DNA from: a virus
DNA: 64,000 nt
Direction: 5' to 3' (one strand)
Virus record (IMG/VR): IMGVR_UViG_3300030012_003086
Coordinates: 32,523 to 96,522 of that record
Both the position numbers and the translations under genes were made by a program. The notes under the pieces were generated by a model. It searched no databases, was not told where the DNA came from, and saw nothing but the letters and a program-made list of their open reading frames with translations. Shown piece after piece: positions 35,436 through 63,830 of the stretch (position 1 is the first letter of the stretch; the number at the start of each line of letters is the position of its first letter).

Positions 35436-35437
35436 AA

Positions 35438-38489: not shown

Positions 38490-38490
38490 C

Positions 38491-42256: not shown

Positions 42257-42267
42257 TGTATCACTTC

Positions 42268-42758: not shown

Positions 42759-42762
42759 AATA

Positions 42763-46994: not shown

Positions 46995-47114
46995 TTAGTT
47001 ATCAACCTTACTAACTTTCATACTCTTTGGTTTACCTGCTTTTATCCAGCACGATTCACAAAACCCAAAAGGATAATTATTTTCTGAACAATAACATTTA
47101 CCACAATATATCAT
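46995..47114 (-). CDS. small Zn-finger protein (39 aa)
   Basis: MIYCGKC...FCESCW; ATGA overlap with the upstream gene. Confidence 0.55.
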   Translation of the reverse strand: MIYCGKCYCSENNYPFGFCESCWIKAGKPKSMKVSKVDN

Positions 47115-47491
47115 AGTCTCCGCCTCTGATTCTTTGGCCGTGTTAAATGCTTTCCGGGGTCAGAAGCAACGCTACCGAAATTTGTTCGGGGGCTAACTGC
47201 TCCTGTGTCAGACATATCTCCGGTAGTTTGATTTACAATATTTGTTGTTCTTGGTGTAGGATTATCAAATCTAGCACCTGCAAGAACTCCTAACATTTTT
47301 TTCATCTCTTCAACTGTTCTTTGTTGTTTAGGCTTGAATCTTAAATATCTTTTAAATTTCTTTTTAGCATCATCAGAATAATTGGATAAACTCATCTGAA
47401 AATCATAAAATTCTTTTGCTTCCTGATTAGGAAAAAAACCAAAAATACCTTTTTCTAAATCAGATTTAAGTATTAATTTCCATTCTTCCAT
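47111..47491 (-). CDS. WxxILK-leader protein
   Basis: MEEWKLILKS. Confidence 0.75.
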   Translation of the reverse strand: MEEWKLILKSDLEKGIFGFFPNQEAKEFYDFQMSLSNYSDDAKKKFKRYLRFKPKQQRTVEEMKKMLGVLAGARFDNPTPRTTNIVNQTTGDMSDTGAVSPRTNFGSVASDPGKHLTRPKNQRRRL

Positions 47492-47495
47492 ACAA

Positions 47496-47813
47496 TCATC
47501 TCCTTGATTTATTTCCGTGACATTTCCATTTTTTACGGCTTAAATTATTCGGGCTATTTGGGTCACTTCTCCAATTTCCTTTAATTTTATTTGACCTCGC
47601 ACAATAAGCATCTCCCTTAGAAGTTCCGGGCCTTATTCTATCTCCACCATCTTTGGCTTTACCTGCTTGACCATATGAAACCTTTCTGCCCGAAGCAGTT
47701 CTTTTAACAAACCTTTTTCCTTTTCGAGGTTTGCCTAATTTCTTTTTCCTTCTTTTAGAACCGGCCTTTCGTCTAGCCTTACTTTTCTTTTGAAGAATAT
47801 CTTGCCAAGTCAT
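47496..47813 (-). CDS. WxxIL-leader highly basic protein
   Basis: MTWQDILQKK; K/R-rich; AYCARS motif. Confidence 0.75.
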   Translation of the reverse strand: MTWQDILQKKSKARRKAGSKRRKKKLGKPRKGKRFVKRTASGRKVSYGQAGKAKDGGDRIRPGTSKGDAYCARSNKIKGNWRSDPNSPNNLSRKKWKCHGNKSRR

Positions 47814-48253
47814 TACTTTTCTCCTCTCATTTGGTTTTGTTTAGAGGTTTTATCATCAACAATTGGCCCGCCCTTCGCCCAAGTATAGCAAGTTCTCGCT
47901 GAATGACATTTAAAGTGATGCATCCAACAATAGCCCAGAGTTTCCCACTTTTTATTATTTTTTATAGCGGATTTTATTTCCTCTTGACTCATAATTTCTA
48001 AAGGCATACATTCATCCATTCTTGGAGATATATCAAATGCAATACAATTACTACAATTAGATTCCTTTGCTACATCAGCAGTAGTGTTCCACCTTTTAGC
48101 ATATTCCTCCCAATATTCTTCATCTTCTAGATTAAGTGGCCCATATCTGATATTAGGATTTTTAACTGCGGCATCTCTATTCTTAGTATTGAGCATCAAA
48201 TCTTGTGTTGCTCTAGGACAAGCCATTTCTTTTAGGATAATTTGCCAAGTCAT
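47813..48253 (-). CDS. WxxILK-leader Cys/His-rich protein
   Basis: MTWQIILKE; CSNC...YCWMHHFKCHSARTC. Confidence 0.8.
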   Translation of the reverse strand: MTWQIILKEMACPRATQDLMLNTKNRDAAVKNPNIRYGPLNLEDEEYWEEYAKRWNTTADVAKESNCSNCIAFDISPRMDECMPLEIMSQEEIKSAIKNNKKWETLGYCWMHHFKCHSARTCYTWAKGGPIVDDKTSKQNQMRGEK

Positions 48254-48642
48254 GCAGTGAAACCTCTCCCTTTACTTGGTTTTTTATTAGATATAATATC
48301 TCCATCTGAGTGAATGTATGCTTTTCCATCCTCAACTAAAGCCATTACTTCGCCCTTTATTTGAGCAGGGCTAAGTTTTTTCTTAAATTTTTTATTTAAG
48401 TGACTATAACCTAAAGCACCACCTTCTTTTTCTATTTCTCTTAAAATCAATCCTCTGATTGCTCCGGCTTTAGCCTTCTTGACTTTCTTTCCATCTTTAT
48501 CAAGAACACCTCTTCCAATTAGAACATCCTTTCTAGTAACTTTACCGTCACCGGATAAATCCTCTAAATCTTTTTCAAAAATCTGCTTTTCACTATCGGT
48601 TTTTTCATTACAGTGTCTTTTTATTATATCTTTCCAATTCAT
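48250..48642 (-). CDS. WxxIIK-leader protein (EF-hand/dockerin-like loop plus wHTH-like module)
   Basis: MNWKDIIKR; DLSGDGKVTRKD. Confidence 0.75.
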   Translation of the reverse strand: MNWKDIIKRHCNEKTDSEKQIFEKDLEDLSGDGKVTRKDVLIGRGVLDKDGKKVKKAKAGAIRGLILREIEKEGGALGYSHLNKKFKKKLSPAQIKGEVMALVEDGKAYIHSDGDIISNKKPSKGRGFTA

Positions 48643-49070
48643 GTTTTAGCCATCCTTTGTGTTTTTCTTTTACTTGATTCCTTTCTTGCCGAAGCAACTT
48701 TATGTGCAGCATTTAATCTCTTCTTTGTTTTGGGGTCTTTTGCTCTCCTAGCCGCTACTCTTGCTCTTTGTTCAACTAAATTAATTATTTGCGATTGTCT
48801 TTTATGTGGCTTAGAACGGAATGCCGCACTACTGAATGTATCTCTCACATCTTTAGCAGTTTTAAAACTAACGGGAACAGTATCTTTTGGATTTTCATCT
48901 GTGTATAATCTTCTTCTAGACCCTTTTGGCTTTTTACCTGTTCCTTTTTTGGGGTCGGTTTTTTTTATTTCTTTACTTCGACAATGTGCTTTACAAGTAA
49001 ATCCTTTAGTTTTATTTGGCCCACTACAAACGCAATAAGACATATCTTTCTTTAGAATATCTTGCCACAT
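48639..49070 (-). CDS. WxxILK-leader basic protein
   Basis: MWQDILKK; TAATG coupling at 49070. Confidence 0.75.
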   Translation of the reverse strand: MWQDILKKDMSYCVCSGPNKTKGFTCKAHCRSKEIKKTDPKKGTGKKPKGSRRRLYTDENPKDTVPVSFKTAKDVRDTFSSAAFRSKPHKRQSQIINLVEQRARVAARRAKDPKTKKRLNAAHKVASARKESSKRKTQRMAKT

Positions 49071-49867
49071 TATTTTGTCTTCCCCCATTTCTTACCTTTA
49101 CCTTTAGTTTTACAGGCTGATGGTGTAGGGCGACAAGCAGGATATCTTTTTCTTTTTTCACCGGAAGAACGACCACATGATTTGTAGCCACCACTTCCAT
49201 CGGGCGCATTACAATCAACCCAACCGCCTTTACTCCCTTTAGCACCTTTACGACCAAACCAATCTTTAAGACTTGATTCAGAAGAAGGCTTTGAAGTCAA
49301 TCTTCTTCTTTGTTTCTTTTTATAACGTTTAGCACTTCTTCTTCTTCGAGCCTTGCTCTTTTTATGAAGAATATCTTCCCATGCAGATTTTTTAACAGAA
49401 GCCATAGTTATATCAGTAACTGCAATTAATACACCAAACAGTAATATTTTCAAAAACATTCTATTATTCTCTATAACGTTAATTATCCCCTCATCAATAA
49501 ATTCTTCAAACAAAAAAGATTTTAGTTTTGTAATCATATTATTTATAGTGATATCAGATATGCTTTTTCTAATTATATGAATTAGTTCAGGATTAGAAAA
49601 ACCTTCATCCTGCGTGTTTAAATCCACTTCTTTTACTTTATCTAAACACAACAATATGATTTCACTGAGAATTACGTTAACAGGAGTATCTAAATTATTA
49701 TCATCAATATAATTATTATATTCTTTCAGAAATTTATCTGAATATGTATCAACAAGATTCTTCATATCGGGATGTATATAATTTATTTTATCATATAAAT
49801 TTGGCATAGCACTATCAAAAACATTTGATAAATCAATAGATTCCTTCAATATGTTATGCCAACTCAT
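49070..49867 (-). CDS. WxxILK-leader two-module protein
   Basis: MSWHNILKE; acidic helical domain, then internal WEDILHK and a basic Cys module. Confidence 0.75.
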   Translation of the reverse strand: MSWHNILKESIDLSNVFDSAMPNLYDKINYIHPDMKNLVDTYSDKFLKEYNNYIDDNNLDTPVNVILSEIILLCLDKVKEVDLNTQDEGFSNPELIHIIRKSISDITINNMITKLKSFLFEEFIDEGIINVIENNRMFLKILLFGVLIAVTDITMASVKKSAWEDILHKKSKARRRRSAKRYKKKQRRRLTSKPSSESSLKDWFGRKGAKGSKGGWVDCNAPDGSGGYKSCGRSSGEKRKRYPACRPTPSACKTKGKGKKWGKTK

Positions 49868-49872
49868 ATCAA

Positions 49873-50073
49873 TCACTTCTTAGATTTATTGCCCCAATTA
49901 GCAGCACCTACTTTACGGCATTGGACTAAAGCACCACTAGCGTAAGCGGAAGGCCATTTTTTATATCTACTTCTTACCTTATAATAACAAGCATCTTGTT
50001 TTTTACCAGACCTTTGGGTTCTCCTTCTTCGGAGTTTTTTCTTTTTTCTTTTAAGAATATCTTGCCACTTCAA
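49873..50073 (-). CDS. WxxILK-leader highly basic protein
   Basis: MKWQDILKR...DACYYKV...WPSAYASGALVQCRK. Confidence 0.75.
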   Translation of the reverse strand: MKWQDILKRKKKKLRRRRTQRSGKKQDACYYKVRSRYKKWPSAYASGALVQCRKVGAANWGNKSKK

Positions 50074-51431
50074 GCCAATATCCCCCCTATTCCTTCTAAC
50101 TCATCCATTACTGAAATTTTACAATTATCTTTGTATTTTTGAATGTCATCTAAATTTATATTTTCTTTACCAAAATCAAATCCAACATGGTCTTTATGAT
50201 TTTCCCACTTCATCAATTTGAAAATTTCGTCACACCTTTGCTTATACCAATCAGCCTTCTTATATGATTTTTTCATTCGTATCAACTCTATAAGTAATTC
50301 GGCATTTCCTTTCTTTAATCTAAAATGAGGAAGACACTTAGTTAGTAAACCCATAACGTCTTTTTGTGAATAAAAATTTAAACGATTTACGGGTCTAGTA
50401 TCTTGTGGAGATTTTTGGTCTAAATGTAATCTTCCAAAACCAATTGATTTATGCATCTCTTCCATGAATGCCCTGCCTCTTTCTCCGGTAGCGACCAAAC
50501 CAACTCTAGGATTCATATTACGGTCAAGAGTAATATAACCATCAGAGTCAATAAAAGCAGCAGTATAAGCCCATACATTTTTCTTTAACATAGTAGGGGC
50601 CTTGTAATAATTGCCCTTAACGGATAATATATCTAGTGACTTTGCTGATTTAGATATAGAGTTAGCATTGGTTGTTCTAAATAAATCAGCAGGCATTCTA
50701 TCATGTATTCCCTTCGCACTAATACCGGGGTTTTCACACACCATCTTTACAATAAAGTCATTTTGTCTGTCCTTTTTCGACTTAACTAAAGACTGATTAG
50801 AAACCTTAGAAATAGCATTTCTAAATTCTTTTTTACTTTGTCTCATAGTCTTGTATAGTGCAGAATAATCATCACAGTAAACCATTCCTGTTTGTTCTAG
50901 TTCAGCCTCCCAATACTTACACAAAGCATCAACGACTTCTCTTCTAGATTCCACATCTTTCATTTTGTAAAGTTTCTGTAAGTCTTTTTCATTAAATCTC
51001 ATTTTCTTTAAAGGCACTTCGTAAGGAGATAACCAAGAAATAGAATCTATACATTTCTGCAAATGGTCTGAGTAAGCATCAATCATTGTATCAATTACTC
51101 TTGTCATCTTTTCTCTATTTTCACCCTTAAGGACTCTTCTAGCCTTCCTCATCTTAGTGACTAAATCAGGAATAGTCTGTTCTTGTATGATATATTCATC
51201 GGGGAATGAAACAATATACTTTCTTGCTTGAGAAGCATTAATCCCTAAATCATTTGATAGTTTAGTTATCTGCTCATTCTCCGACATAACATATGTGTCA
51301 AAAGAAGCAGTGACTAAATCTTTATTTTGAGCATCTTCAATCTCATCCTCAACCTTTTCTTCTCTCTCAGTAATTCTAGACAACTCTTCATATTTGCTAG
51401 AAATTTCTTTTAATCTTTCAGCCTTCGACAT
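50070..51431 (-). CDS. protein with a C-terminal LAGLIDADG endonuclease domain
   Basis: YTAAFIDSDGYI, GFGRL, LPHFRLKK; long helical N-terminus. Confidence 0.8.
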   Translation of the reverse strand: MSKAERLKEISSKYEELSRITEREEKVEDEIEDAQNKDLVTASFDTYVMSENEQITKLSNDLGINASQARKYIVSFPDEYIIQEQTIPDLVTKMRKARRVLKGENREKMTRVIDTMIDAYSDHLQKCIDSISWLSPYEVPLKKMRFNEKDLQKLYKMKDVESRREVVDALCKYWEAELEQTGMVYCDDYSALYKTMRQSKKEFRNAISKVSNQSLVKSKKDRQNDFIVKMVCENPGISAKGIHDRMPADLFRTTNANSISKSAKSLDILSVKGNYYKAPTMLKKNVWAYTAAFIDSDGYITLDRNMNPRVGLVATGERGRAFMEEMHKSIGFGRLHLDQKSPQDTRPVNRLNFYSQKDVMGLLTKCLPHFRLKKGNAELLIELIRMKKSYKKADWYKQRCDEIFKLMKWENHKDHVGFDFGKENINLDDIQKYKDNCKISVMDELEGIGGILA

Positions 51432-51439
51432 AATACCAC

Positions 51440-52852
51440 CTAGAAATTAAGACCCAATGAATTCCTTTTAGGACCACTATCAAATAAACCTATATCATCT
51501 AACAGAATGAAGTTTTCAACTAATTGATATGTAGCAGCGTTAGCCAATGCTAAACTCATAACCATATCGTCATGTGCGCCTATTCCCTCAAACTTACCAC
51601 GTTCAGTAATAGCAAACATTGACAATTCCTCAACTAATGTTGAAGTAACTCTTCGGCTTTCTTCATTACCATAAGGAAAATTCATTTTTTGATTCTCTAA
51701 AGTCATCTGTAAATTAAGAATAATTTCCTGCTTCTTTCTTCTAGTGGTGTTGAAATCATGCACGTTTAAATCAGCCACCTGTCTCAACTCCTGTGTAAAA
51801 GATTTAGCGAAAGTATTAGTCTCAAAAAGAATAGCCTCCGGTCTGAAAATTTGACCTATCAATTTTACTTTGTTGATATTTTCTCTAAACTCAACATTCT
51901 TTGCCCGGTCAATGTAAACTATGGATTTGTTTTCATTCTCATCGACTTCTAAAACAGTAATTACATTGTAGTCTCCATCAGTGGATATAGCAGGGTCCAC
52001 TCCTACAAAATACTTGTAGCCTTCTCTTCTCATAGGTTTCAAAACCAAATCTTTATTCTTAGCACTATCCAAATATTCGGGATTAAATAAAGAAGTGCCC
52101 GTTGATATAGGAACACACATATATTCTCTTGTAAACATGAGAGAACCTACTTCAGCCTTTCTTGCCATTAGTGCATCATAATTCCATCTTTCGGGCCATA
52201 GCGGTTCGTTTAAAGAATTTAAACAAGGATATGTTCTAACTGTATAAGCCTCATTTTCTGCTAGTTGCTGATAAATATCTGTGTAACTAAAAGGAGTTCC
52301 GATTACTCTAAGAGAAGCAGTGTGGTGAAGTGTTGGTATCATGTCACCATAAAACCAATCTGTAACTTTCTGAATACCTGTCATACTAAACTCCTTTAAA
52401 GGGTCATCAATAATAATCTCTTGAGGGTGTAACCCACGAATCTGAGAACCTACTGACCTTTCTAGAATTTGATTTCCATTAGTCAAAGTAATATTACCAA
52501 TAGCCCAACCTCTAGCAGGTTTAAACTTCTTAAGCATAGGATGAGTAAACATCTTATCAATGTCTCTCATGTGAACCAAAGTCTGTTTTTGGTTAGAAGA
52601 AATGTAAAGCATTTGATATGGGGGTTCTTCAAAGATTAATTTCCATACAACCCAACTGTGCATAAATACAGATTTTCCGTGGTCACGACTACAAATAATT
52701 ACAGTTCTTTGAGTGCTATTCATCAACTCATGCCACTCTTGAATATAAGAGGGAAAATGATAACCTAATACATTTTGAAAAAAATATGGAAAAGAGTTAC
52801 GAGATAACTCCATATCCATCTGATGTTCAAAATTAAATGCTTCTAATTCCAT
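51440..52852 (-). CDS. terL: terminase large subunit
   Basis: SRDHGKS Walker A, IIIDDP Walker B, VIGTP, GVDPA, HDDMVMSLA. Confidence 0.95.
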   Translation of the reverse strand: MELEAFNFEHQMDMELSRNSFPYFFQNVLGYHFPSYIQEWHELMNSTQRTVIICSRDHGKSVFMHSWVVWKLIFEEPPYQMLYISSNQKQTLVHMRDIDKMFTHPMLKKFKPARGWAIGNITLTNGNQILERSVGSQIRGLHPQEIIIDDPLKEFSMTGIQKVTDWFYGDMIPTLHHTASLRVIGTPFSYTDIYQQLAENEAYTVRTYPCLNSLNEPLWPERWNYDALMARKAEVGSLMFTREYMCVPISTGTSLFNPEYLDSAKNKDLVLKPMRREGYKYFVGVDPAISTDGDYNVITVLEVDENENKSIVYIDRAKNVEFRENINKVKLIGQIFRPEAILFETNTFAKSFTQELRQVADLNVHDFNTTRRKKQEIILNLQMTLENQKMNFPYGNEESRRVTSTLVEELSMFAITERGKFEGIGAHDDMVMSLALANAATYQLVENFILLDDIGLFDSGPKRNSLGLNF

Positions 52853-54057
52853 TACATATCCTCCGGTGAATAAAATACGGGAAGTTTGCTATTTAATCTC
52901 AACCTATCATACATTTTCTGATGAAACCTACCCTTATCCATTTCACCTATTTTTAAACTTCTAGTCCTCATTTTACGGTGATATTTTCTTTTTTCATCAT
53001 TAGTCATGTTTTCATATTCTTCCCTTGTGTTCGTTTTACCTTTTATGCTTTCCCCACCATATTTAGGGGATGCAAAGGTAGGAAATTTGTAATTTCTTTT
53101 TTTATCAAGCCTTCCTCTCATTCTTATATGAAATTTTTTCTCTTCGCCCTCAGTTAGTTTAATCCTACCTGTATGATACTTGTGCTTTTCACTATTAGTT
53201 AAAGTTTCATAAACTTCTTGTGAAAGTTCTTGATATAGCAAAGGATTACCATGAGCGGTTTGTCGCCCTTTTATTTTAAATCTATTATTTTCTAAATCTA
53301 AAGAATAAAAATCTTCTTTCTTTGAGTTTGTAATTATTCTTTGATATTGCCTTGTATGAAATCTAGCCAATTCTTGTAATTCTACCATTTCCTGATATAA
53401 TGGAGATTTTTCATCAGTAACATTAACTCTTGCTTGTAGGTTTTTTAGTCTTTTATTGTAGGCCTCATATTGACTCGAATGCCATCTTTTTCTATCATCA
53501 GGACTCGCTCTTTCATATTGTTCAGCACTACGAATGTCCACTAAATTTTTAATAATGTTCCACCATCCTTTTGCCAAAGGCAATCCTTTAACTGCCCATT
53601 TAGCCCCTCTAGGGTGGTCATCATAATATTCTTTGAATGCCTTAATAGTATTATCATTAGCATATTTTCCTAACTCTTTATCTGTTGGAGTTACCGACCA
53701 ACCTCTCTTTTCAAAAGACTTAGCCCATTCTTCATTAGGCATAACAGTTGAAGAAATACCTGTTATGTAAGGACCGGAAGTATTTCTCTCAAGATGTCTA
53801 TCTAACTGCTGATAATGATTGTTGCCTCTTTCAGATTCAATGACAAATGCACCACCTCTAGTAGTGAATTCTCCTTTCTTACCATAACCAATCGCAGCAA
53901 TAGGCAGGCCGTCTTGTAATTTAACAAAGTAATCAGTTATAGGATAGAATGGGTCTAAAGGAGAATTCTTACTACGGGCAGCAGGAAATTCACTGTCATT
54001 ATTTGATTCCCACAAAGAAAACAATTCTTCTTTAGACATATCCTCTATCAAAATCAA
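52852..54057 (-). CDS. GNAT-like domain + internal WWNIIK + triple His-repeat domain
   Basis: PIAAIG...AFVIESERGNN (GNAT-like); three ~45-60 aa repeats. Confidence 0.7.
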   Translation of the reverse strand: MILIEDMSKEELFSLWESNNDSEFPAARSKNSPLDPFYPITDYFVKLQDGLPIAAIGYGKKGEFTTRGGAFVIESERGNNHYQQLDRHLERNTSGPYITGISSTVMPNEEWAKSFEKRGWSVTPTDKELGKYANDNTIKAFKEYYDDHPRGAKWAVKGLPLAKGWWNIIKNLVDIRSAEQYERASPDDRKRWHSSQYEAYNKRLKNLQARVNVTDEKSPLYQEMVELQELARFHTRQYQRIITNSKKEDFYSLDLENNRFKIKGRQTAHGNPLLYQELSQEVYETLTNSEKHKYHTGRIKLTEGEEKKFHIRMRGRLDKKRNYKFPTFASPKYGGESIKGKTNTREEYENMTNDEKRKYHRKMRTRSLKIGEMDKGRFHQKMYDRLRLNSKLPVFYSPEDM

Positions 54058-54323: not shown

Positions 54324-54327
54324 ATTA

Positions 54328-57015
54328 TCACTGCCTAAATGATGCTTTTATTAAATACACCTGCTCTTTGCTAATACCATATTCCTTTGATAGATTACCA
54401 TGAGCGTCATCGGATTTTACAATATTTTCGACTTCTAAATTACTCAAATCAATTTGATGATTATGATACATATCATCAATAAACGAACCTACATCTCTAT
54501 TTAAATCAAGGAAACCATAAACAACGGGTTTTCCTAATTGCTTTCTAATAACGTCATGGGCCTTTAACAACTTAGTTACTCTTTCCGGTAAGTCCTTCTG
54601 TCTTTCTTCGTATATTTGCATGATTCTATCATACTGTGATTTCATGTTATCATCTTGTGTTAGAACTCCTTGTTGTTCTAATAAGAAGTTAAACAACGCC
54701 ACTAGATATCTTCTTTGTCCAGCAGATTCAAAGTATTCAGAAACTCTTTCTTTAATTGTTTTAGTGCTATCTTTAGGGAATCTCTTGTCTTCTAATCTAG
54801 TATCTTCTACTTCATTCATCAGAATATAAATTTGAGTCGCTATCTCATTAGCAATTTGCTCTCTATTATTTTCTCCAAAAATCTCAGATATAGAATCCAA
54901 TGCTGCTTGTCCTGTTACAAATGTATTACTGTTTATTTGTAAGTTTCTTGCATTTTTAATCTCAAAGAATTCAGCAATATTAGATAAGTCATTAACTCCT
55001 ATTTCATCCACTTCTCCTTCGGATAGTATCTCATATGCTCGACCAAATGCAGACTCTAGACCTAACATATCTGCCCAAACACTGAATCCTCGGTTAGCCC
55101 TGCTAGTGGAAAATCTAGGATTATTAATTACAGTAAAACCTGCTTGGACAGGAAGAGAAAAATAGTCTGTCATTCTCTTAATTAGTTCTTTTAAAGGTTC
55201 AATAATCACTTTATATTTCTCATCTATTTGTGCTAGAGAAGGGTCATCATCAATATCTCCTCGGAAAAATGACATGGTTTTACCTGCTGATAGTGCTTCG
55301 CCATATTGAACGGTTGTTCCTTTGGGTTGGCCTTTAGTGGTTCTAGAAGCAATATGGAAAGCAAAAGGAACAGGTTCAGATTTATCGCCTACCTTCTTAC
55401 CTTCGGGTATTTCTCCTGCATCTTCCATTTCTTGAGTATAGGTTATTGGTTTTTCTTTTAGAGCATTAAGTAAGTCTTCTAAGAAATCCTTGATATCATC
55501 TTCTCTATCTAGTAAAGTTTCAGAATCCATTCCTTGATATAGACTATTAAATTTTGAATTTCTAAGAACAGAAGCAGGAAGATAATACCCACTAAATGCA
55601 ACTTCATCTTCTTCAACAATAGTAGTATCTTCTAATTCATCAGCCCACCTATTTAATTGGGCTTCATAAGTGCCGGTAACTTTTAGTTCACCATCAGCAA
55701 TATCATCCAATTCATCATCAATATACTCAATCAATTCATCATACTGTTCTTCTGAAATACTAATGAGTTTCTTTTCAGTATCGTCTTTCTTCAATTCCCA
55801 ACCTAAGAGAGGGTCAATTGATTCAAGACTGTTTTTCATTTGTTCAAATACTTCTTCATCTTTATCTTTGAATGCCATATCTTCAACTAATTTATTGTCT
55901 ATTAGTTCGGCTCCTTCTCTCAGGGCTTCATCAGCCGAACCTGCCGCAGCAGTTTGTATAGATTGCATAGCAGCATCTTTACTGCTCTGTGCTTCCTGTT
56001 CTATTCTTTGCATCTCTTTGACTTCTTCTTGAGACATTTGTGCATCCCTTTCGCCCAAACCTTTTCTGTCCTCAAATTGAGCATACATATCCTCAATTTT
56101 TTCTCCCACGTTGTTAAGTATCATCCAATACATTACTGTGGAATACAATCTTCCTAGAGCCTCCATTTGCATAGAATCTACTTTATCAAACTTAACAATA
56201 TATTGTAAATTCTTATTTGAATATCTATTCAAGACCTTTAACAATTCATCTCGATAGTCTTGAGGTAAACTCTTTTCTTTTGCTACCGCAGTTTTAAAAT
56301 CATCTAATGCTTCTTTGAAAAAATCATATTTTTCAAAAACATTGCCCCAATGATTATACACTAATTGTCTAAATGTTTTCTTACTTACATCAACTGCACC
56401 CAAAACAAAATCGAAATCTATTGGGCTTTCCATAGTTTTTGCAGGGGAAATATCTGTTCTATATCTCCCTGTTCTTTCTCTAGGTCTTTCTTCGCCCTCG
56501 GCTACATCTAATTCGTCTTCAATGAATAAATAAATTTCTTCAAAGTTATGAATCAGATTCTCAATTAATTCATTTTGTTCCATGTTTCTTAAAGAGGTAA
56601 GTGCAGAAGTTACTGTATCTAAATCAGAAGGACTGAATCCTCTTACTCTAAATCTCTCTGGCTTAAGACGAATACTTGCTAATTGCTGATAGCCTAACTT
56701 TTGTCCTTTTAGGGTTTCAATAGTCAAGTTATTGATTACGTTTCTGATTTGTCCTATTGGAGTGCTTGACATCTCACCTGCTCTTTCATCAGTTTTCTTA
56801 TCGACTAAAGACCTAAATTCTCTTTCAAAACGATTAGTGAATTTTTTAATTTCTTCTTCACTTCCCTTGTCCATCAAGAATTGCCTAAACTTTACAAGTT
56901 GTTGACGAATGGCTCTTTGTTTCTTTGCACCTTTCATAGCAGATATATCCTTGATATCATTTTCAGAAACATCATATTCTGTATTTAATTCGGATAAATC
57001 AATTACCTTCACCAT
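54328..57015 (-). CDS. large acidic hypothetical protein with C-terminal HTH
   Basis: 895 aa; ends LSKEYGISKEQVYLIK. Confidence 0.8.
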   Translation of the reverse strand: MVKVIDLSELNTEYDVSENDIKDISAMKGAKKQRAIRQQLVKFRQFLMDKGSEEEIKKFTNRFEREFRSLVDKKTDERAGEMSSTPIGQIRNVINNLTIETLKGQKLGYQQLASIRLKPERFRVRGFSPSDLDTVTSALTSLRNMEQNELIENLIHNFEEIYLFIEDELDVAEGEERPRERTGRYRTDISPAKTMESPIDFDFVLGAVDVSKKTFRQLVYNHWGNVFEKYDFFKEALDDFKTAVAKEKSLPQDYRDELLKVLNRYSNKNLQYIVKFDKVDSMQMEALGRLYSTVMYWMILNNVGEKIEDMYAQFEDRKGLGERDAQMSQEEVKEMQRIEQEAQSSKDAAMQSIQTAAAGSADEALREGAELIDNKLVEDMAFKDKDEEVFEQMKNSLESIDPLLGWELKKDDTEKKLISISEEQYDELIEYIDDELDDIADGELKVTGTYEAQLNRWADELEDTTIVEEDEVAFSGYYLPASVLRNSKFNSLYQGMDSETLLDREDDIKDFLEDLLNALKEKPITYTQEMEDAGEIPEGKKVGDKSEPVPFAFHIASRTTKGQPKGTTVQYGEALSAGKTMSFFRGDIDDDPSLAQIDEKYKVIIEPLKELIKRMTDYFSLPVQAGFTVINNPRFSTSRANRGFSVWADMLGLESAFGRAYEILSEGEVDEIGVNDLSNIAEFFEIKNARNLQINSNTFVTGQAALDSISEIFGENNREQIANEIATQIYILMNEVEDTRLEDKRFPKDSTKTIKERVSEYFESAGQRRYLVALFNFLLEQQGVLTQDDNMKSQYDRIMQIYEERQKDLPERVTKLLKAHDVIRKQLGKPVVYGFLDLNRDVGSFIDDMYHNHQIDLSNLEVENIVKSDDAHGNLSKEYGISKEQVYLIKASFRQ

Positions 57016-57017
57016 TG

Positions 57018-59453
57018 TTATACCTCCTCAATTAATCCTGCTTTTTCAAAGACATTTACAATATTCGCTATTTTGTTTTTATCATAAGTAAACATATGAA
57101 GAGTGAAGTTTTTCAATTGGTTTTCAAAGGCCTTAACTACTAATTCTTTCATTTCTTGTAAAAACTTGGACATCTTTTTATCTAATTTTTCAGCGATTGA
57201 CTTAGCATCATCGGGTCTATTATCAATACTCTCATAAGCAGTTTGTATAAAGTCTTTATCATCGGGATAGAAAGAAGCAAGATAAGACAAAAACCCTGCT
57301 GCATCTTTAGGATTCAATATTGACAACTTGTTAAAATCATTTTTAATTTCATCCGCTAAAGAAGATAAACCTCCCTCATCTTTTCTCTCCTTAGATAAAT
57401 CAACTAAGAATGAAACAAAGTCCTTTGCACTCGAAGATAGATTTCTAACCGCCCCAATAGCAGACTTGGTTCTCTGCTTTTCCTTATTTTCAACATCTTC
57501 AAACCTTTCAATGTTAGCCTCTCTTTGAGCAATTGTGTTTCTAATTTCATCTTTTCTTGCACTACTTATATCAGTATTCAAAAGTTCACGTAGTTTATCA
57601 TTCTGCTCCTTCTTCTTTTGTGTAATTTTGTCGTAATTTCTTTTTCTTCGCTCTTTTTGCTTTTCAAACGATTCACCTAATTTTTCAGCAGTTTCTAAAG
57701 GAGTAAATGTCTTATAGTCTTCGTATTCGGCAGATGCAATATTATAGTCATCATCATACTCTATCGTTTCTTCTATTACCCACGCAATCTCTATTCTAGC
57801 AAAAGAAGCAGCATCAATCATATTCTGTTCGGAAGCAAAATCTTCTTGAATTAAAGGTCTAGGTGAAATCGGACTAGAATACCAATTGACTCTTACTTTA
57901 CCCTCAGCCCCTTCATATTCTCCTTCATTCCAAAATTCCAAAAATCGAAGTGCTTCTGATTTAGTCCATCCCCTATCTAAATTAAACAAGGTGTCTCTTC
58001 TCATTTGGCTAGTGACACTTTTGACCTCATTTTTCCTAGAAGAGTTGTTTCTTATGTTCTCTTTTATCTTCTTTCTAGCAAAATCAGCATCATTGAAGTC
58101 AATATTTTTACCTTTTAGTGTCTTTTTATAGGGATTTAAAGGAATATCATACGCAAAACTTCTTTGAATATCCCCATGAACACCCGAAAGACTAGAATAT
58201 AAGTCATCAATAATCATTTTTTCTGCTCTGTCTTCTGATATAAATTCGGTCTGTTTTGCCATTTTTAGATAGGTTTCAAACCAATTTTTACGCATAGAAT
58301 GGTATAAAATAGCAGAACCATAGGGATTTAGCACTATTTTCTTCATATTTTTGGTCGCTCTCTGTAAAAACAAGTTATCGGGGAAAGGTAAGATGGTTCC
58401 CGTAGGATTTCTTCCTATTGTGGTCTGATTATAATCAGAATTATCGGGATTTTTTCCAGAAATCCAAGATGGAATCAATTGACCCGGTTCACCAATAACA
58501 TCTTCATAGGCCTTTATGTATAATTCAACAGATTTTGCCGTAAATGGGGTATGAGCAGGCGCAATTTTATATTTTGTTCCCAAAAATGCCATTTTACTTC
58601 CCAAATCTTCTTTAGTTTCTTTATTTTTATTTTTTCCTGCAAAAATAACATTGATTTTGTATTTTTTATTGAGAGTATTATACAAATTTTTTATTTTTTT
58701 CTTATTTTTTACTAAATCCTTTTTTCCTTCAGCAATTACATCAATAATTTCTTCTCTGTTTTCAGGATTTTGTATTCTTTTAATCTCCCAATTAGATTTA
58801 TTTTTATCTGAATAAATAATTGGGTTCAAAAGAGAAATAAATTCTCCATGAGTGCTTACATTTAATTCAATTATTCCATTTTCAAACTTAGACTCTAATA
58901 ATTTAGCAAATTCTGTAACTTCGCTATCACTTTCACTTGGAGTTGTATCAAACGTTATCATATTTTTGGATTTTCTTCTATTAATATACTCTTGATACTG
59001 TATAATTTTCTTTGCTTCGGGATATCTTCTCCACTTGCCTCTATTTTTTGGCATTAATTCAATTAATTTTGCAATTAATTTCTTTTTTTCTGAGAAATCT
59101 GACCCTTGTATCTGTTCAACTAATAACTTTATTTGTTGGGATTTTTCAGGAGCCTGTTTTTTCGGTAAAAATTCTATAATTTGTTCTATGTTAGCCTTAA
59201 ATTGTTCTTTCGTTTGGTCTGCTTGTGGTAATTTTCCATACAAATCATACGCTCTTTGAATTTTAGCATCATCGACTTTGAGTTGGTCTAGACGATTCTT
59301 TAACTTTGACAAATTTTCTTTTGAAAATTTGCCACTCTGAATATTTTCTAGAAATTCTTGAAAATTTTCCGAAGATATTAGGTCAAGATAGAGGACTTCA
59401 TCAGCATCGGGAAACATTCCATAAGGTGCTTTAAGGACATTAAACCAATTCAT
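57018..59453 (-). CDS. large WxxVLK-leader protein
   Basis: MNWFNVLKA at ATG 59453 after GGAG; ~811 aa, helical. Confidence 0.8.
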   Translation of the reverse strand: MNWFNVLKAPYGMFPDADEVLYLDLISSENFQEFLENIQSGKFSKENLSKLKNRLDQLKVDDAKIQRAYDLYGKLPQADQTKEQFKANIEQIIEFLPKKQAPEKSQQIKLLVEQIQGSDFSEKKKLIAKLIELMPKNRGKWRRYPEAKKIIQYQEYINRRKSKNMITFDTTPSESDSEVTEFAKLLESKFENGIIELNVSTHGEFISLLNPIIYSDKNKSNWEIKRIQNPENREEIIDVIAEGKKDLVKNKKKIKNLYNTLNKKYKINVIFAGKNKNKETKEDLGSKMAFLGTKYKIAPAHTPFTAKSVELYIKAYEDVIGEPGQLIPSWISGKNPDNSDYNQTTIGRNPTGTILPFPDNLFLQRATKNMKKIVLNPYGSAILYHSMRKNWFETYLKMAKQTEFISEDRAEKMIIDDLYSSLSGVHGDIQRSFAYDIPLNPYKKTLKGKNIDFNDADFARKKIKENIRNNSSRKNEVKSVTSQMRRDTLFNLDRGWTKSEALRFLEFWNEGEYEGAEGKVRVNWYSSPISPRPLIQEDFASEQNMIDAASFARIEIAWVIEETIEYDDDYNIASAEYEDYKTFTPLETAEKLGESFEKQKERRKRNYDKITQKKKEQNDKLRELLNTDISSARKDEIRNTIAQREANIERFEDVENKEKQRTKSAIGAVRNLSSSAKDFVSFLVDLSKERKDEGGLSSLADEIKNDFNKLSILNPKDAAGFLSYLASFYPDDKDFIQTAYESIDNRPDDAKSIAEKLDKKMSKFLQEMKELVVKAFENQLKNFTLHMFTYDKNKIANIVNVFEKAGLIEEV

Positions 59454-60034
59454 TCTCCTATCCACCTGTATTTGTTAGGCCTACCTTTTATTTTTTCATA
59501 TCTTTTGTAGGCGACGCTATTAAGATATCCGCTAACTTCAGCAGTAGTGGGAATATTTCCTCCGCTTCTATCGGGCTTGTTAATATAATAATCTTGTAAA
59601 GATAAAAAAGCCTCTTTAGCAGTTCTCTCCTTTCCATCTCTCATAATATTATCAAGATTCTTACCAAATTGAAATCTCCTACGTCTGCCTTTCATAAGTG
59701 ACTCCTTGTAATAGTCTTGACCGTCATCTAATCTAATTAATTTATATTTTGCCTTATTATGAACTTTAGCATACCCCCGTCTAAGGCCAAAATTAGTAAA
59801 ATAATTGGGAAACCATTTTCGTCCTTTACCCTTAGACCAAACAGACCATGTTCTTCTAGAAATATTATCCGAACCTACCATAGGTTCAACCACTTCCATA
59901 AATTTTTCATAATAATCACTACTGGTAAAAATTGTTCCAGCAGGAATAGTCAGGTAAACTTTCTCTATTCCTTTTTTTAGCATAGGCAAATTTTTGTTAC
60001 TATAACTTGCTTTAATGATATCCTTCCAAATCAT
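59450..60034 (-). CDS. WxxIIK-leader protein with wHTH-like domains
   Basis: MIWKDIIKA; C-terminal RTAKEAF...NIPTTAEVSGYL. Confidence 0.75.
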   Translation of the reverse strand: MIWKDIIKASYSNKNLPMLKKGIEKVYLTIPAGTIFTSSDYYEKFMEVVEPMVGSDNISRRTWSVWSKGKGRKWFPNYFTNFGLRRGYAKVHNKAKYKLIRLDDGQDYYKESLMKGRRRRFQFGKNLDNIMRDGKERTAKEAFLSLQDYYINKPDRSGGNIPTTAEVSGYLNSVAYKRYEKIKGRPNKYRWIGE

Positions 60035-60035
60035 T

Positions 60036-60473
60036 CTAATCCCTCTTCATGTGTTTTTTATTTTGTGGCGGTTCATAGCCTTTTTCTCTATAAAATGCTT
60101 CATCAAATTTAGGTTGTTTAAATCCATGATAAGGTCTAATATCTTCAGGTTCTTGTCCTTGAAAGAAACCTACTGCGTGTCGGTATTCAAAATCTATTTT
60201 TTCATCTATTGCATATATTTCTTTCATTTCAGGAGAGTTTCTTTTTTCTTTATGCCACCTAGAATAAGGAGTTCCTTCGGGTTTCCATTCTCCGGCCGGT
60301 GGTTCAGGACCAAATTCTCTTTCCATTCTTTCTTGTAAATCTTTAAACAATTGTGTTCTTTTTTCTTGAAGAGGATGTTGTTCTTTTCTTTTTGGTCGCA
60401 TTATTTTATCTTCGGCCATATACGCTTCAATTCTTTTCCAAGCATCATTTTTAAGAATAGATTGCCAACTCAT
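60036..60473 (-). CDS. WxxILK-leader protein
   Basis: MSWQSILKN. Confidence 0.75.
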   Translation of the reverse strand: MSWQSILKNDAWKRIEAYMAEDKIMRPKRKEQHPLQEKRTQLFKDLQERMEREFGPEPPAGEWKPEGTPYSRWHKEKRNSPEMKEIYAIDEKIDFEYRHAVGFFQGQEPEDIRPYHGFKQPKFDEAFYREKGYEPPQNKKHMKRD

Positions 60474-60685
60474 TGCAATTCCTCTTGCCTGTCTCTCATT
60501 TTTTCTAAAGCCACAATAGCCTGACCCATATCAATAATAGAGGCCGCTAAATCTTGCATTTCTACAGATGTTTCAGTTTCAAAATCTTTGAACTCTTCTT
60601 GTGCTAAAAGGTTGATTCGTTTCATTTTTCGTATAAAAGAGTCAATGTCTTTAAAATCGTCTTTAATTATTTTTTCCCAACTGAT
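60470..60685 (-). CDS. WxxIIK-leader protein with ATC in place of ATG (71 aa)
   Basis: GGAGG RBS then ATC AGT TGG GAA AAA ATA ATT AAA (xSWEKIIK); open to a TGA overlapping the next ATG. Confidence 0.55.
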   Translation of the reverse strand: MSWEKIIKDDFKDIDSFIRKMKRINLLAQEEFKDFETETSVEMQDLAASIIDMGQAIVALEKMRDRQEELQ

Positions 60686-60846
60686 TGCAATTCCTCCTTT
60701 AATGTTTTAATAAATGGTTCATAATTATGTTTGCCATAATCTCTTTCTAATACTTCTGCTACCTTTCTCGCAAAACTGTGTATAGATTCATCTTCCTCAA
60801 GAACAATGGTATCTAAAGTGACTTTAACTATGTTTTCCCAATTCAT
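60667..60846 (-). CDS. WxxIVK-leader protein (59 aa)
   Basis: MNWENIVKV...; GGAG RBS; not in the ORF track. Confidence 0.7.
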   Translation of the reverse strand: MNWENIVKVTLDTIVLEEDESIHSFARKVAEVLERDYGKHNYEPFIKTLKEELQSVGKK

Positions 60847-60870
60847 TGTTATTTCTCCTAAATTAAATTC

Positions 60871-61071
60871 TTAACCCATAATAGCATCCAATATGTTAAA
60901 TCTTGCATCTTTTCTAAAAAACCTACTATGTCCACAATTATTACAAAAAACCACTGTAAATACTTTGTTTGAATAATTGAATAACCTTGACCATTTTCCT
61001 GTCATTGCCATTTCTTCAAAAGAAAATGAAGTGCTCTGACATACTTCACAAAATAAAGTTAGTTGGTTCAT
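60871..61071 (-). CDS. Zn-ribbon nucleic-acid-binding protein (zinc_ribbon_13/DUF2082-like)
   Basis: CEVC...MTG..SRLFN..NKVF.VV.CNNCGHS.FF. Confidence 0.7.
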   Translation of the reverse strand: MNQLTLFCEVCQSTSFSFEEMAMTGKWSRLFNYSNKVFTVVFCNNCGHSRFFRKDARFNILDAIMG

Positions 61072-61082
61072 TATAATTTCTC

Positions 61083-61316
61083 CTATTCATAATTTAGAAT
61101 CGGTGATGACTTCCAATCATCAGCAAGTAAATCCTTTTTGTGCATTTCAGTTGCTAATAAAAAAAGTGTATTTTTATCATATTTATTTTCTAAAGATTCA
61201 ATATAAGACATAACTAATTTTTTTTCTTCTTCATTGAACTTATCCAAATTATTTTTTGCGTGGCTTGTCCAATTGTATGCTGCCCTTTCACTTTTCAAAA
61301 TATCTTGCCAATTCAT
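61083..61316 (-). CDS. WxxILK-leader protein
   Basis: MNWQDILKS. Confidence 0.75.
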   Translation of the reverse strand: MNWQDILKSERAAYNWTSHAKNNLDKFNEEEKKLVMSYIESLENKYDKNTLFLLATEMHKKDLLADDWKSSPILNYE

Positions 61317-61975
61317 TGTAATTTCTCCTGCATTCTTTTCTTAATATCTAACCAAATCTCAGGATTGTTCTGTGCAAGCACTTCTTGAACAATTTGCATT
61401 TGTGCAACAATAATTGTGTCTTGTCTCTTGTGTATAAGTTTTCCTTTAAACTCCATGAGATATTTTAACGACTCTCTAATTTCTCTTGCTAACTTAGTTA
61501 AAGCGTCAATCATCTTAGGGTCTAAATCATTTCCTAATTCATGAAATACTTGTTCAAGCCTAGCGTCTAATTTCTCAACGTTGTTAGAAAGTAATTCAAC
61601 TTCGTTAACTTCTTTCTTAGCAATAATAGCAGCAGCACTTTGTTGAACTATTGGGGTTAAGTGATGTTTCATATGTCTTTGAATCTGTGCCTTTGTAGTA
61701 TCTAAGGCTAAAGCAACTGCGTCACTATCTATATCTCCATTACTTAATGCCTGTTCGTAATGTTTTCTCATAGGGTCTGTGCATAGATTACATTTAGGAT
61801 TAGATGACATCACATAATCCCCCATGTGGTTTCTCTGATGTTGAGCAGCAGTTCCGCTTCTCCAACCATTAGCAGCATCTAACTCATCACAAGTAACAAT
61901 ACCATTCTCTAGAGAGTTTTCTATTTCTTCTCTATCTTCATGCTGACATAAACCGCAACGTTTTCTAGTTACCAT
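61313..61975 (-). CDS. putative terminase small subunit (tandem CxxC-HTH-HxxxH domains plus coiled coil)
   Basis: CGLC...HQRNH and CNLC...RHMKHH duplicated domain, followed by oligomerisation-type helices. Confidence 0.55.
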   Translation of the reverse strand: MVTRKRCGLCQHEDREEIENSLENGIVTCDELDAANGWRSGTAAQHQRNHMGDYVMSSNPKCNLCTDPMRKHYEQALSNGDIDSDAVALALDTTKAQIQRHMKHHLTPIVQQSAAAIIAKKEVNEVELLSNNVEKLDARLEQVFHELGNDLDPKMIDALTKLAREIRESLKYLMEFKGKLIHKRQDTIIVAQMQIVQEVLAQNNPEIWLDIKKRMQEKLQ

Positions 61976-61979
61976 GTAA

Positions 61980-63419
61980 CTACCTCCAAAGATAAGACTG
62001 CCACATTCTCTTCAATACAATCCTCTCATCAGTATTAGGTGCATTCATACTTTGTAAATCTCTAGTTCTACTAATTACAGACTGATTCAACAATGCTTTC
62101 ATAGCATTTTTTGTAAGTTTAACCTGAATTGTTTTGGGATTACTTTTCTCTTTTCTAAATAAGTCTAAAACTTTCTGCTTAGATGAAGGAGGAAAGTCAA
62201 ACTTTCTTTCGCTTAATCTCGCTGCTGCTTGGCTAGTATTAAAATTAGCACCATCATACAATTCTGTCTTTTTCAAAAGACCTTGTGCGAATCTTTTAAT
62301 TTCGGGAATCTTTGCTAATTCCTTTGCCATTCTTACACTATTAACAGGGAACACGACTTCTTCCTGTCCTTCTTCTCTAAAGTCAAATCCTCCCCTAACA
62401 GTGTTTTGCCAAGCCGGTTTATCATTAGGAGCAAGTGCAACACCTCTTGGAGTTTTTCTTCTTAATGCTCTTTCAATTAAAATTACAATTCCTTTAGGGG
62501 TTGCTGATAAAGTAATCTCAGTAATTTTTCCAGCAGGTGCATCTTTAGCATCAAGTTGAGCAATCTCTCTTACTAATCTTCTGTCGGTATTTCCCAATTT
62601 AAATTTAGTATTTTCAAAATCCCTTCTTAGTTTGGCTACATTCAGTTTACCGTCTTTATTCCAAAATGCAGTATTTTTAATAGCCTTGTCAAAATATCTT
62701 TCTATCTCGCCTATTTCTTCCCAATCAACAATAGTGTCATCGTCTTCGGTCATTGGAACATCATCCACTTCATTTGTTATCTGTGCCAATTTTCCTTTAG
62801 CATCCATCATCATAACTGCTAATCCTCTTGAATCAAAATCAGCAGTCGGCTTTTCATTGAATAGTGCTTTGTGTGGTAAATTACTACCTGTAAACCAATC
62901 TGCGGGGGCTGCTTCGCCTCCATATTTTTCCTTGTATTTTTCTGTTCTATAATGCCCTTGAACAGGCTTAGGTGCAAGTCTTTCATTACCTCTTACTTCT
63001 TCAACGTCTGTAAATAAAATAAATGCAGGGTCTAGTGCTTTACCGTCACCTCCGGCATCTTCACCAGTTCCCTTTAACGCCATCAAAGCGTCGCCTAGAG
63101 AAGAAATAGCAATTTCATCTGCTAGCGTATAATATTTATTTTCTATAACTCTTTCAATGAAGGCAATATATTTTTTATTTGCCCCTTCATCAGTAAAGCC
63201 CTTATTACGACTATTGTCTCTTACATTTGTTGAAGTAATATGATTAACTAAGAAATCATATAGAGTGGGAATCCTACTACTAACCATCATGTCTGAGTTA
63301 CTAATACCCATGCACGTTTTTTTCCAATTGCGATATTCTTTTATAAACTCAGCCTTATCAGAATTTTGTGTGACTCTCATTCCTTTATAGTCATCAACAT
63401 TCTTCTTTTCTTTACTCAT
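61980..63419 (-). CDS. hypothetical protein
   Basis: ~480 aa ORF in the late arm. Confidence 0.8.
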   Translation of the reverse strand: MSKEKKNVDDYKGMRVTQNSDKAEFIKEYRNWKKTCMGISNSDMMVSSRIPTLYDFLVNHITSTNVRDNSRNKGFTDEGANKKYIAFIERVIENKYYTLADEIAISSLGDALMALKGTGEDAGGDGKALDPAFILFTDVEEVRGNERLAPKPVQGHYRTEKYKEKYGGEAAPADWFTGSNLPHKALFNEKPTADFDSRGLAVMMMDAKGKLAQITNEVDDVPMTEDDDTIVDWEEIGEIERYFDKAIKNTAFWNKDGKLNVAKLRRDFENTKFKLGNTDRRLVREIAQLDAKDAPAGKITEITLSATPKGIVILIERALRRKTPRGVALAPNDKPAWQNTVRGGFDFREEGQEEVVFPVNSVRMAKELAKIPEIKRFAQGLLKKTELYDGANFNTSQAAARLSERKFDFPPSSKQKVLDLFRKEKSNPKTIQVKLTKNAMKALLNQSVISRTRDLQSMNAPNTDERIVLKRMWQSYLWR

Positions 63420-63558
63420 CTTCCTCATCCTCTTTTCGTGGATTGACGACCTCAGAGTTAATTATACCCGGAGTTGATGTAGTGACTGCCCCTAATGCTT
63501 TTTTCTCACAGTCCGAACAACCGCAGCCTTTCTTTTTTAGAATAGTTTGCCAAGTCAA
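63412..63558 (-). CDS. WxxILK-leader small protein (48 aa)
   Basis: TTG start after GAGGTGA: MTWQTILKKKGCGCSDC...; not in the ORF track. Confidence 0.7.
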   Translation of the reverse strand: MTWQTILKKKGCGCSDCEKKALGAVTTSTPGIINSEVVNPRKEDEEDE

Positions 63559-63830
63559 TCTTTCACCTCAAAAATATCTTGTAACTCCATTCTTAATTCT
63601 TCATATCTTTCAGCGTCAATCTTTCCTTTGGAAAATAATCTTGCTAATTTTTCCATACCTTGAGGATATGTATTTGCTCCCTTTTGTAATTCGGGCGACC
63701 TTGTGGATTTATCTTTCTTTGCTGATGTAGGCCCTTCATAAGAAGCACCACCATATTCATCAAAAGAATCAGCACTAATATTTCTTTCATTATCAGAGGT
63801 TTTTCTTTTTAGCATATCTTCCCATGTCAT
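63555..63830 (-). CDS. WxxMLK-leader protein
   Basis: MTWEDMLKR. Confidence 0.75.
   Translation of the reverse strand: MTWEDMLKRKTSDNERNISADSFDEYGGASYEGPTSAKKDKSTRSPELQKGANTYPQGMEKLARLFSKGKIDAERYEELRMELQDIFEVKD

Follow-up and report, generated by a model that had tools for sequence, protein, structure and literature searches.

A stretch of 64,000 nucleotides from the IMG/VR virus record IMGVR_UViG_3300030012_003086 was analyzed. It spans bases 32523-96522 of one virus contig with a total length of 96,522 bp and is called the window in the following; all coordinates refer to it unless marked as contig coordinates. Many genes on one strand of this DNA share an N-terminal leader of about eight amino acids with the pattern M-x-W-x-x-I-L-K (the tag), and its recurrence lies far beyond chance. 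Judged by its gene content, the contig belongs to an ocean archaeal virus of the group B magroviruses (Magrovirales). The tag is under selection at the level of the peptide, it is modular, confined to one strand and specific for a lineage, and it resembles the tail of the viral scaffold. On balance, it probably represents a removable capsid-loading propeptide of the group B magroviruses, which is portable, linked to a prohead protease of the S78 family and comparable to the capsid-targeting sequence (CTS) of bacteriophage T4, to which it is unrelated in sequence.

A leader peptide shared by otherwise unrelated genes of one strand

A sequence-only reading of the window had listed 17 gene starts with a shared leader, and all of them translate as claimed (Table 1). 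Two of the listed genes (63558 and 50073) have TTG as start codon and one (47813) contains ILQK in place of ILK. Within the whole contig, 26 open reading frames (ORFs) with an N-terminal M-x(0-2)-W-x-x-[IV]-[ILV]-K were found, all encoded on the minus strand. Ten of them are located outside the window at contig 331-5896 and would fall into this arm once the contig is closed at its ends; published magroviruses are terminally redundant (PMC5434244). Seven of the ten are tandem paralogs (contig 496-4415) and represent a local expansion of one tagged family. They encode proteins of 140-232 amino acids (aa) with acidic bodies and the start MWW(N/D)I(I/L)K..KQSSRQLxNLDWDEE, for which Pfam and PHROG searches gave no match. 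In a crude gene call, 21 of the 73 minus-strand genes carried the tag and none of the 61 plus-strand genes, which agrees with the earlier statement that no gene of the replication arm has the leader. The number of N-terminal matches expected from shuffling the residues within the proteins was 0.05.

For comparison, 80 related IMG/VR contigs with portal proteins of 78-99% identity were analyzed. They contain 333 tagged ORFs, 331 of which lie on the strand of the portal gene, and the consensus of these tags is M-[STN]-W-[KQEF]-[EDN]-I-L-K, with Lys in 325 cases in a search that also permitted Arg and Gln. After removal of the tag, the ORFs of the relatives and of the genome formed 90 BLAST clusters including 52 singletons; a handful of the clustered ORFs look spurious, and the BLAST-separable families number about 80-90. 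The proposal that the sequences are unrelated after the Lys largely holds. It does not apply to the ORFs 49861 and 50067, which are the only pair of the window clustering by BLAST, nor to 47807, which has a paralogous segment inside the protein encoded at 49070-49867.

The codon use of the tag was determined for 301 tags of the related contigs. Ile is encoded by ATT (133), ATA (89) and ATC (25), Leu by TTA (88), CTT (57), CTA (56), TTG (29), CTC (20) and CTG (5), and Lys by AAA (204) and AAG (97). Since all synonymous codons are in use while the amino acids stay constant, selection acts on the peptide, as the sequence-only reading had concluded from a smaller range of codons. Moreover, the W, I, L and K columns of the tag are about as conserved as the protein body, or more so, in nine of 11 families. 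Shine-Dalgarno-like GGAG/GGTG sequences precede the tagged starts by 8-12 nucleotides, and the codons of the tag itself vary freely. An explanation at the level of the DNA would make the peptide a by-product of a cassette junction, i.e., of a recombination linker for the shuffling of small genes, or of the translation-start context. The mini-genes at 60.0-61.3 kb indeed have similar junctions including the Shine-Dalgarno-like sequence, and the gene content of the tagged-gene region turns over fast. Nevertheless, we regard this explanation as very improbable, because only the amino acids are constant, because the peptide also occurs at C-termini and inside proteins, and because its best matches apart from the tags are scaffold tails and not gene starts (see below).

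The tag is specific for the lineage. Two magrovirus locus sets have densities of 23.3 and 12.7 tags per 100 kb. For other marine viral contigs, 1.7 Mb in total, the values are 0.13 and 0.32 per 100 kb, and the tag is absent from the haloarchaeal siphovirus HCTV-5 and from 0.63 Mb of loci of group A magroviruses. Across 2.4 Mb of other viral contigs the tag is at least 40-fold rarer than in the magrovirus locus sets, and HCTV-5, which is the closest relative with an annotation, lacks a tagged array of this kind. No description of the tag came up when the literature was searched for the motif, nor in papers on magroviruses.

Resemblance of the tag to the scaffold tails

A position-specific scoring matrix was built from the N-terminal tags of the relatives only and used to scan 29,626 eight-residue positions of the proteins of the genome. 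The two highest ranks among the non-N-terminal positions were taken by the tail of the fused S78 prohead protease and scaffold (protease-scaffold) with 12.5 bits, which reads ...AEMDWNDIHKMVGGI (38491-38532), and by the tail of a 92-aa mini-scaffold (42507-42785) with 11.6 bits, which reads ...STMDWSEIHKMVEKAGGN. The 92-aa protein aligns with residues 355-405 of the scaffold and is therefore regarded as a free-standing copy of the C-terminal scaffold module. Both tails are retained in the 80 related loci, with drifting sequences just upstream of them, and distant S78 protease-scaffolds of 35-60% identity often end in the related pattern M-S-W-x-[DE]-[IVL]-[HNE].

Further tag-like peptides were detected in the relatives at the extreme C-termini of several unrelated proteins (PEWKKILRGD, KSWQEILRK and SWFDILRV, each ending at the stop codon) and in the window at apparent fusion joints inside the 265-aa protein (SAWEDILHK) and the 401-aa protein (GWWNIIK). 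The occurrence of the peptide at either end of proteins points to a docking peptide and not to a feature of the translation start. A complex prediction with an alignment of the major capsid protein (MCP) and residues 1-32 of the protein encoded at 61083-61316 gave an ipSAE of 0.00, which speaks neither for nor against docking.

Terminal peptides with a docking function are familiar from other capsids. Duda, Oh and Hendrix are said to have reported in 2013 that the terminal tail of the HK97 protease (gp4) holds the protease to the shell interior. For P22 and 80alpha/SaPI1, a terminal scaffold peptide has been discussed as a hold on the interior of the shell, and the 80alpha scaffold and SaPI1 CpmB compete through a similar C-terminal helix (PMC12749128). 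Likewise, the short terminal peptide common to the magrovirus protease-scaffold and the mini-scaffold would be expected to hold on to the shell interior. Unlike in those systems, the magrovirus peptide is found N-terminally on about 25 accessory proteins, and capsid binding of the tail is putative here. A second parallel exists to the cargo-loading peptides of encapsulins: here too, unrelated cargo would enter an HK97-fold shell by means of a short peptide at one terminus; however, magroviruses are tailed viruses with portal, terminase, tail genes and a maturation protease, and their peptide has a different sequence and is mostly N-terminal.

The tag could also address another common partner, for example a host hub protein, a membrane or assembly site, the viral chaperonin or a viral factory, and the likeness to the scaffold tails would then reflect a shared partner other than the shell, e.g., the portal. 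Short amphipathic W-x-x-[IL]-[IL] helices are a type of docking motif in many systems, and one tagged gene adjoins genes for a GTPase-like protein and for membrane proteins (34471-35477). We consider such a partner unlikely, because the tag is restricted to the head/tail strand, because the best internal matches are tails of head-assembly proteins, and because eight residues devoid of a hydrophobic core are too short for a Sec or Tat signal. Sec/Tat and archaeal class III signal peptides, which have a charged N-region followed by a hydrophobic core of at least seven residues, were also compared with the tag and rejected, as its x positions are polar, a Lys is located at position 8 and the sequence after the tag is polar or basic.

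A putative protease site at the end of the leader

The tag ends in two hydrophobic residues and a Lys (h-h-K). A comparable sequence is present in the MCP, where N-x-L-L-K occupies residues 26-30 (...NNQLLK30/Q, the slash marking the putative cut); within 56 sequences of down to 52% identity, K30 is invariant and L28 and L29 are nearly so. The capsid proteins of group A magroviruses retain ...T-D-L-L-K-A near residue 37. In HK97, which represents the type S78 system, the protease cuts gp5 after K103, and the surrounding sequence is ...TFNK/SLGSDADS. The peptide MNWQDILKSERAAY and MCP residues 20-40 are candidate substrates of the S78 protease. Post hoc, an N-terminal h-h-K was noticed in five of the seven ORFs at 37134-45068, i.e., those for the MCP, the protease-scaffold and the 92-, 118- and 650-aa proteins, and not in those for the DNA ligase and a 79-aa protein.

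The sister lineage has a leader of its own. In group A magroviruses the pattern M-T-A-F-D-x-A-W-x-[LIV]-[LVM]-K gave 242 matches in 79 loci, and one 97-kb genome contains about 13 genes with this leader. Similar to group B, it forms an array of unrelated head-arm genes with a single leader ending in W-x-h-h-K, and the S78 protease-scaffolds of both groups are 38-43% identical. It differs in its length of 12 residues, in its N-terminal half and in the position of the W, which is one residue nearer to the Lys. The part common to both leaders is W-x(1-2)-h-h-K, which is consistent with recognition by related S78 proteases. A group A contig of 97,368 bp additionally encodes several large head-arm proteins with the leaders MNDLILK, MNLNELILK, MSKEQEELILK and ..FDVLLLK, all ending in [IL]-L-K, and one 143-aa protein with the leader at both ends.

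Evidence across lineages came from the basic module of the 66-aa tagged protein (DACYYKV..WPSAYASGALVQCRKVGAANWG), for which 1,660 small homologs were found. Among the best 120 of them, about half have a W-x-x-I-L-[KQ] leader and the remaining ones carry the leaders MTKDFLIKIIEEEIKFVLDEK-, MKITEVVGITEQEFEQLAEK-, MEELYEFDEDSLNEEEVELDEK- and MIRLKDLLEIDLQEK-, all of which end in L-x-E-K. A Peptidase_S77 (the family of T4 gp21) was present in two of the five large contigs with this second form of leader, the other three being fragments of 17-68% completeness. The T4 protease gp21 cuts after L/I-x-E. It removes the CTS propeptides of the internal proteins IPI-III and of Alt (PMC7411985, PMC3012670). 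In this small sample of five contigs, the sequences fit one cargo which receives a lineage-specific leader ending in the putative protease site of the respective lineage.

The WPSAYASGALV module also forms part of long basic proteins composed of several modules ('gp114'), which are present in 365 phage records, almost all of them from T4-like cyanophages, and which contain further modules also seen in tagged mini-genes. In Synechococcus phage Syn9 (gp114, locus 5143-6474), other T4-like cyanophages and many marine viral contigs, such basic proteins have a length of 200-1000 aa and are built from modules that stand alone as tagged mini-genes here: SLRDWFG..GGWV, DACYxKV..WPSAYASGALV, YTDENPK.. 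and CxxGxYYC...

These results also bear on the possibility that the leader is only a recognition and cleavage propeptide of the prohead protease, which would serve timed activation or release and no capsid targeting, or that it docks on the protease-scaffold and the cargo rides in on the scaffold. The part common to both magrovirus leaders is W-x(1-2)-h-h-K and not the part resembling the scaffold tail, LLK is invariant in the MCP of both groups, and in the presence of an S77 protease the basic module has other leaders, with the ending L-x-E-K. Such a restricted role would leave the tail resemblance in group B unexplained. Moreover, prohead proteases act within proheads and their substrates normally have to be inside as well, which makes this proposal a variant of capsid loading and not a true alternative; we assign it a low probability.

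The tagged proteins

No match to Pfam or PHROGs was obtained for any tagged protein. The sequence-only reading had suggested a winged helix-turn-helix protein and a GNAT-like protein among them, and the former was recovered in the protein encoded at 48250-48642, whereas the latter received no Pfam support. In the AlphaFold2 model, the C-terminal domain of this protein has a winged-helix topology with a predicted local distance difference test (pLDDT) score of about 70-76. All Foldseek matches of the domain are winged-helix domains, e.g., that of Rpa2 with a root-mean-square deviation of 1.3 Å over 60 columns, at weak E-values of 0.05-0.3. The respective family is the most widespread one and was found in 51 of the 80 loci; across 23 sequences M1 and W3 alone are invariant, and an indel-rich linker of 0-80 aa connects the tag to the conserved C-terminal domain. 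The tag is also retained in homologs of the 811-aa protein at 39-41% identity. For the 811-aa protein the ESM Atlas search returned nothing, and PDB sequence searches with the protease-scaffold and the 895-, 811- and 650-aa proteins gave nothing useful. AlphaFold2 gave no usable model for the Cys-rich protein of 146 aa (pLDDT 36.6).

Small Cys-rich proteins behind a common leader recall another system. Precursor families of the prochlorosin type share a leader followed by hypervariable sequences, and some tagged proteins, e.g., the one encoded at 63412-63558, would fit this pattern. The tag might thus be the leader of precursors similar to ribosomally synthesized and post-translationally modified peptides (RiPPs), where a single modifying enzyme recognizes the leader, which is then removed. 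This origin is so improbable that we hardly reckon with it: the leader comprises just 8 aa, the sequences following it reach 811 aa and include folded domains (winged helix), and among the neighboring genes tested no Pfam or PHROG match to a modifying enzyme was obtained.

Proposed mechanism and comparison with T4

The claim that the tag targets proteins to the capsid and is removed by the head protease is supported in part. In favor are the ranks of the scaffold tails in the matrix scan, the copies at C-termini and fusion joints, the h-h-K ending similar to LLK30 of the MCP, and the L-x-E-K leaders in the presence of S77 proteases. According to the capsid-loading reading, the tag would form a short amphipathic helix with W, I and L on one face, which would dock the tagged proteins inside the assembling procapsid. 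The site or partner used would be shared with the protease-scaffold and the mini-scaffold, whose similar tails read M-D-W-x-[DE]-I-H-K-M. The S78 prohead protease would then cut after the Lys and release the cargo within the head. This cargo would be a fast-changing set of about 25 proteins, among them many very basic peptides, Cys modules, the winged-helix protein and the 811-aa protein; it would stay with the DNA and probably enter the host alongside it. Condensation of the DNA and delivery to the host, both part of the sequence-only reading, are pure conjecture.

The closest parallel is the CTS system of T4, which comprises the internal proteins IPI-III and Alt (Mullaney & Black 1996, cited in PMC7411985; PMC3012670). 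Both systems have a short N-terminal peptide (about 10 aa in T4) common to otherwise diverse proteins of one virus, which are encoded in a polymorphic locus where the leader alone is conserved and several cargo proteins are very basic. In both cases the leader ends at a plausible prohead-protease site, and a prohead with scaffold or core and a prohead protease is available, here in the form of the S78 protease-scaffold, the HK97-fold MCP and the portal. Several features are different. The T4 sequence MKTYQEFIAE, cut after L/I-x-E, has no likeness to M-x-W-x-x-I-L-K, and L-x-E-K endings were seen on leaders of other lineages only; T4 uses an S77 protease, whereas an S78 protease of the HK97 type and an archaeal host are found here; and the four tagged genes of T4 contrast with about 25 per genome, roughly a fifth of the genes. 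The magrovirus tag moreover resembles the own tail of the scaffold. Packaging and cleavage have been demonstrated in T4 and are putative in magroviruses.

Several observations weigh against the capsid-loading reading. In other magrovirus lineages the scaffold tails read MSWGDIHNL, ISWSDIHNI, LSWGDIHNL and LSWEEVNEL while the tags keep W-x-x-I-L-K, so that the last positions of tag and tail do not co-vary. The scaffold tail of group A (..DGW.A.E.L..RAL) was not among the matches to the group A leader; as leader and tail are unlike in this group, mimicry of the tail cannot be a general rule. FRILK and FDILK within the protease were rejected as cleavage sites, because they are conserved fold strands in distant S78 proteases and HK97 gp4 and probably part of the S78 fold. 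Untagged head-arm genes have an N-terminal h-h-K no more often than replication genes do (eight of 51 and 11 of 61, respectively). That the tagged genes are late is inferred from their position only, as they are interleaved with the terminase gene and abut the portal gene. Docking, cleavage, packaging and delivery are inferred. To our knowledge, 25 cargo species are far above any known CTS system, and a cargo of 811 aa is large.

Genome organization and assignment to group B

The genes at 1-13.7 kb, including the family B DNA polymerase (PolB), are encoded on the plus strand, and all genes from 13.8 kb to the end of the window, including the head and tail genes, on the minus strand. The tagged genes are interleaved with the terminase gene and located directly upstream of the portal gene (Table 1). 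The assignment to group B is based on a genome of about 100 kb, a halovirus-like head module, archaeal replisome genes, a split PolB and a putative GroEL, traits which match those described for this group (PMC5434244). The portal protein is 28% identical to that of HCTV-5. PolB is divided between two ORFs, which are separated by three small ones. The first (4245-5897) encodes the exonuclease and the beginning of the polymerase domain, and the second (6762-7652), which begins with MKVVYGHTDSIYV, contains the YGHTDS motif. A PolB split in this manner has been published as the hallmark of the B1 subgroup (PMC5434244).

The putative GroEL is a 507-aa ORF outside the window (contig 25155-26905) and was recognized by eye from its GroEL-like N-terminus only. 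A preceding 76-aa ORF may be GroES-like, again judged by eye; according to PMC5434244, magroviruses lack GroES. The 832-aa ATP-dependent DNA ligase has long N- and C-terminal extensions, and its gene belongs to the head module, where it separates the mini-scaffold genes from the protease gene. A small GTPase-like protein (34767-35477, minus strand) with a weak Pfam match to MMR_HSR1 (E 7e-4) is encoded within the head-tail module directly upstream of the outlying tagged gene. The ORF at 60470-60685 overlaps the end of the upstream gene and may be a decaying cassette or have an unusual start. Magrovirus contigs were also found binned in bacterial metagenome-assembled genomes labelled Maricaulis sp. 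and Altibacter sp. of the species-representative genome set, which is probably a binning error.

Table 1. Tagged genes and head genes of the window.
Feature	Coordinates	Strand	N-terminus	Remarks
Tagged gene, 91 aa	63555..63830	minus	MTWEDMLK	
Tagged gene, 48 aa	63412..63558	minus	(M)TWQTILK	TTG start; Cys-rich
Tagged gene, 77 aa	61083..61316	minus	MNWQDILK	Consensus tag
Tagged gene, 59 aa	60667..60846	minus	MNWENIVK	
Tag-bearing ORF	60470..60685	minus	ISWEKIIK	ATC where neighbors have ATG
Tagged gene, 145 aa	60036..60473	minus	MSWQSILK	
Tagged gene, 194 aa	59450..60034	minus	MIWKDIIK	Isoelectric point (pI) 10
Tagged gene, 811 aa	57018..59453	minus	MNWFNVLK	
Tagged gene, 89 aa	54054..54323	minus	MNWQEVLK	
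401-aa protein	52852..54057	minus	Untagged	Internal GWWNIIK (W at 53565), apparent fusion joint
Large terminase subunit	51440..52852	minus	Untagged	Terminase_6C; among tagged genes
Tagged gene, 66 aa	49873..50073	minus	(M)KWQDILK	TTG start; basic module
Tagged gene, 265 aa	49070..49867	minus	MSWHNILK	Second, internal tag SAWEDILHK (W at 49381) before basic module
Tagged gene, 143 aa	48639..49070	minus	MWQDILK	Basic; Cys module
Tagged gene, 130 aa	48250..48642	minus	MNWKDIIK	Variable linker, then winged-helix domain
Tagged gene, 146 aa	47813..48253	minus	MTWQIILK	7 Cys
Tagged gene, 105 aa	47496..47813	minus	MTWQDILQK	pI 11.8
Tagged gene, 126 aa	47111..47491	minus	MEEWKLILK	
Portal protein	45307..46962	minus	Untagged	
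Mini-scaffold, 92 aa	42507..42785	minus		Ends MDWSEIHKMV...; tag-like tail conserved in relatives
ATP-dependent DNA ligase, 832 aa	39758-42256	minus		DNA_ligase_A_M, E 7e-28
S78 prohead protease fused to scaffold	38491..39717	minus		
Major capsid protein	37134..38489	minus		HK97 fold
Outlying tagged gene, 96 aa	34471..34761	minus	MWFNIIK	Inside head-tail module

Meaning for magroviruses and other marine viruses

In surface waters of the ocean, magroviruses rank among the most abundant viruses of archaea, and for most of their genes no function has been assigned (PMC5434244). A wider proposal is possible, though as a whole we hold it to be doubtful: magroviruses might use a portable address code, in group B derived from the shell-binding tail of the scaffold and ending in the cut site of the head protease, in order to package about a fifth of their proteome and deliver it as a virion-borne arsenal that evolves fast. 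The same logic might be general in marine tailed viruses, the ending of the leader being set by the protease (I-L-K with S78, L-x-E with S77).

If the capsid-loading reading is true, a location and a likely role would be gained for about 25 orphan genes in each genome and for about 80-90 families of this lineage, whose products would travel inside the virion and be delivered together with the DNA. Archaeal viruses would thereby have their first capsid-targeting sequence, and no known set of tagged cargo would come near this one in size. A simple rule would tie the ending of the leader to the family of the prohead protease and could be searched for across viromes, and a very short peptide would become available for the loading of foreign proteins into HK97-fold shells.

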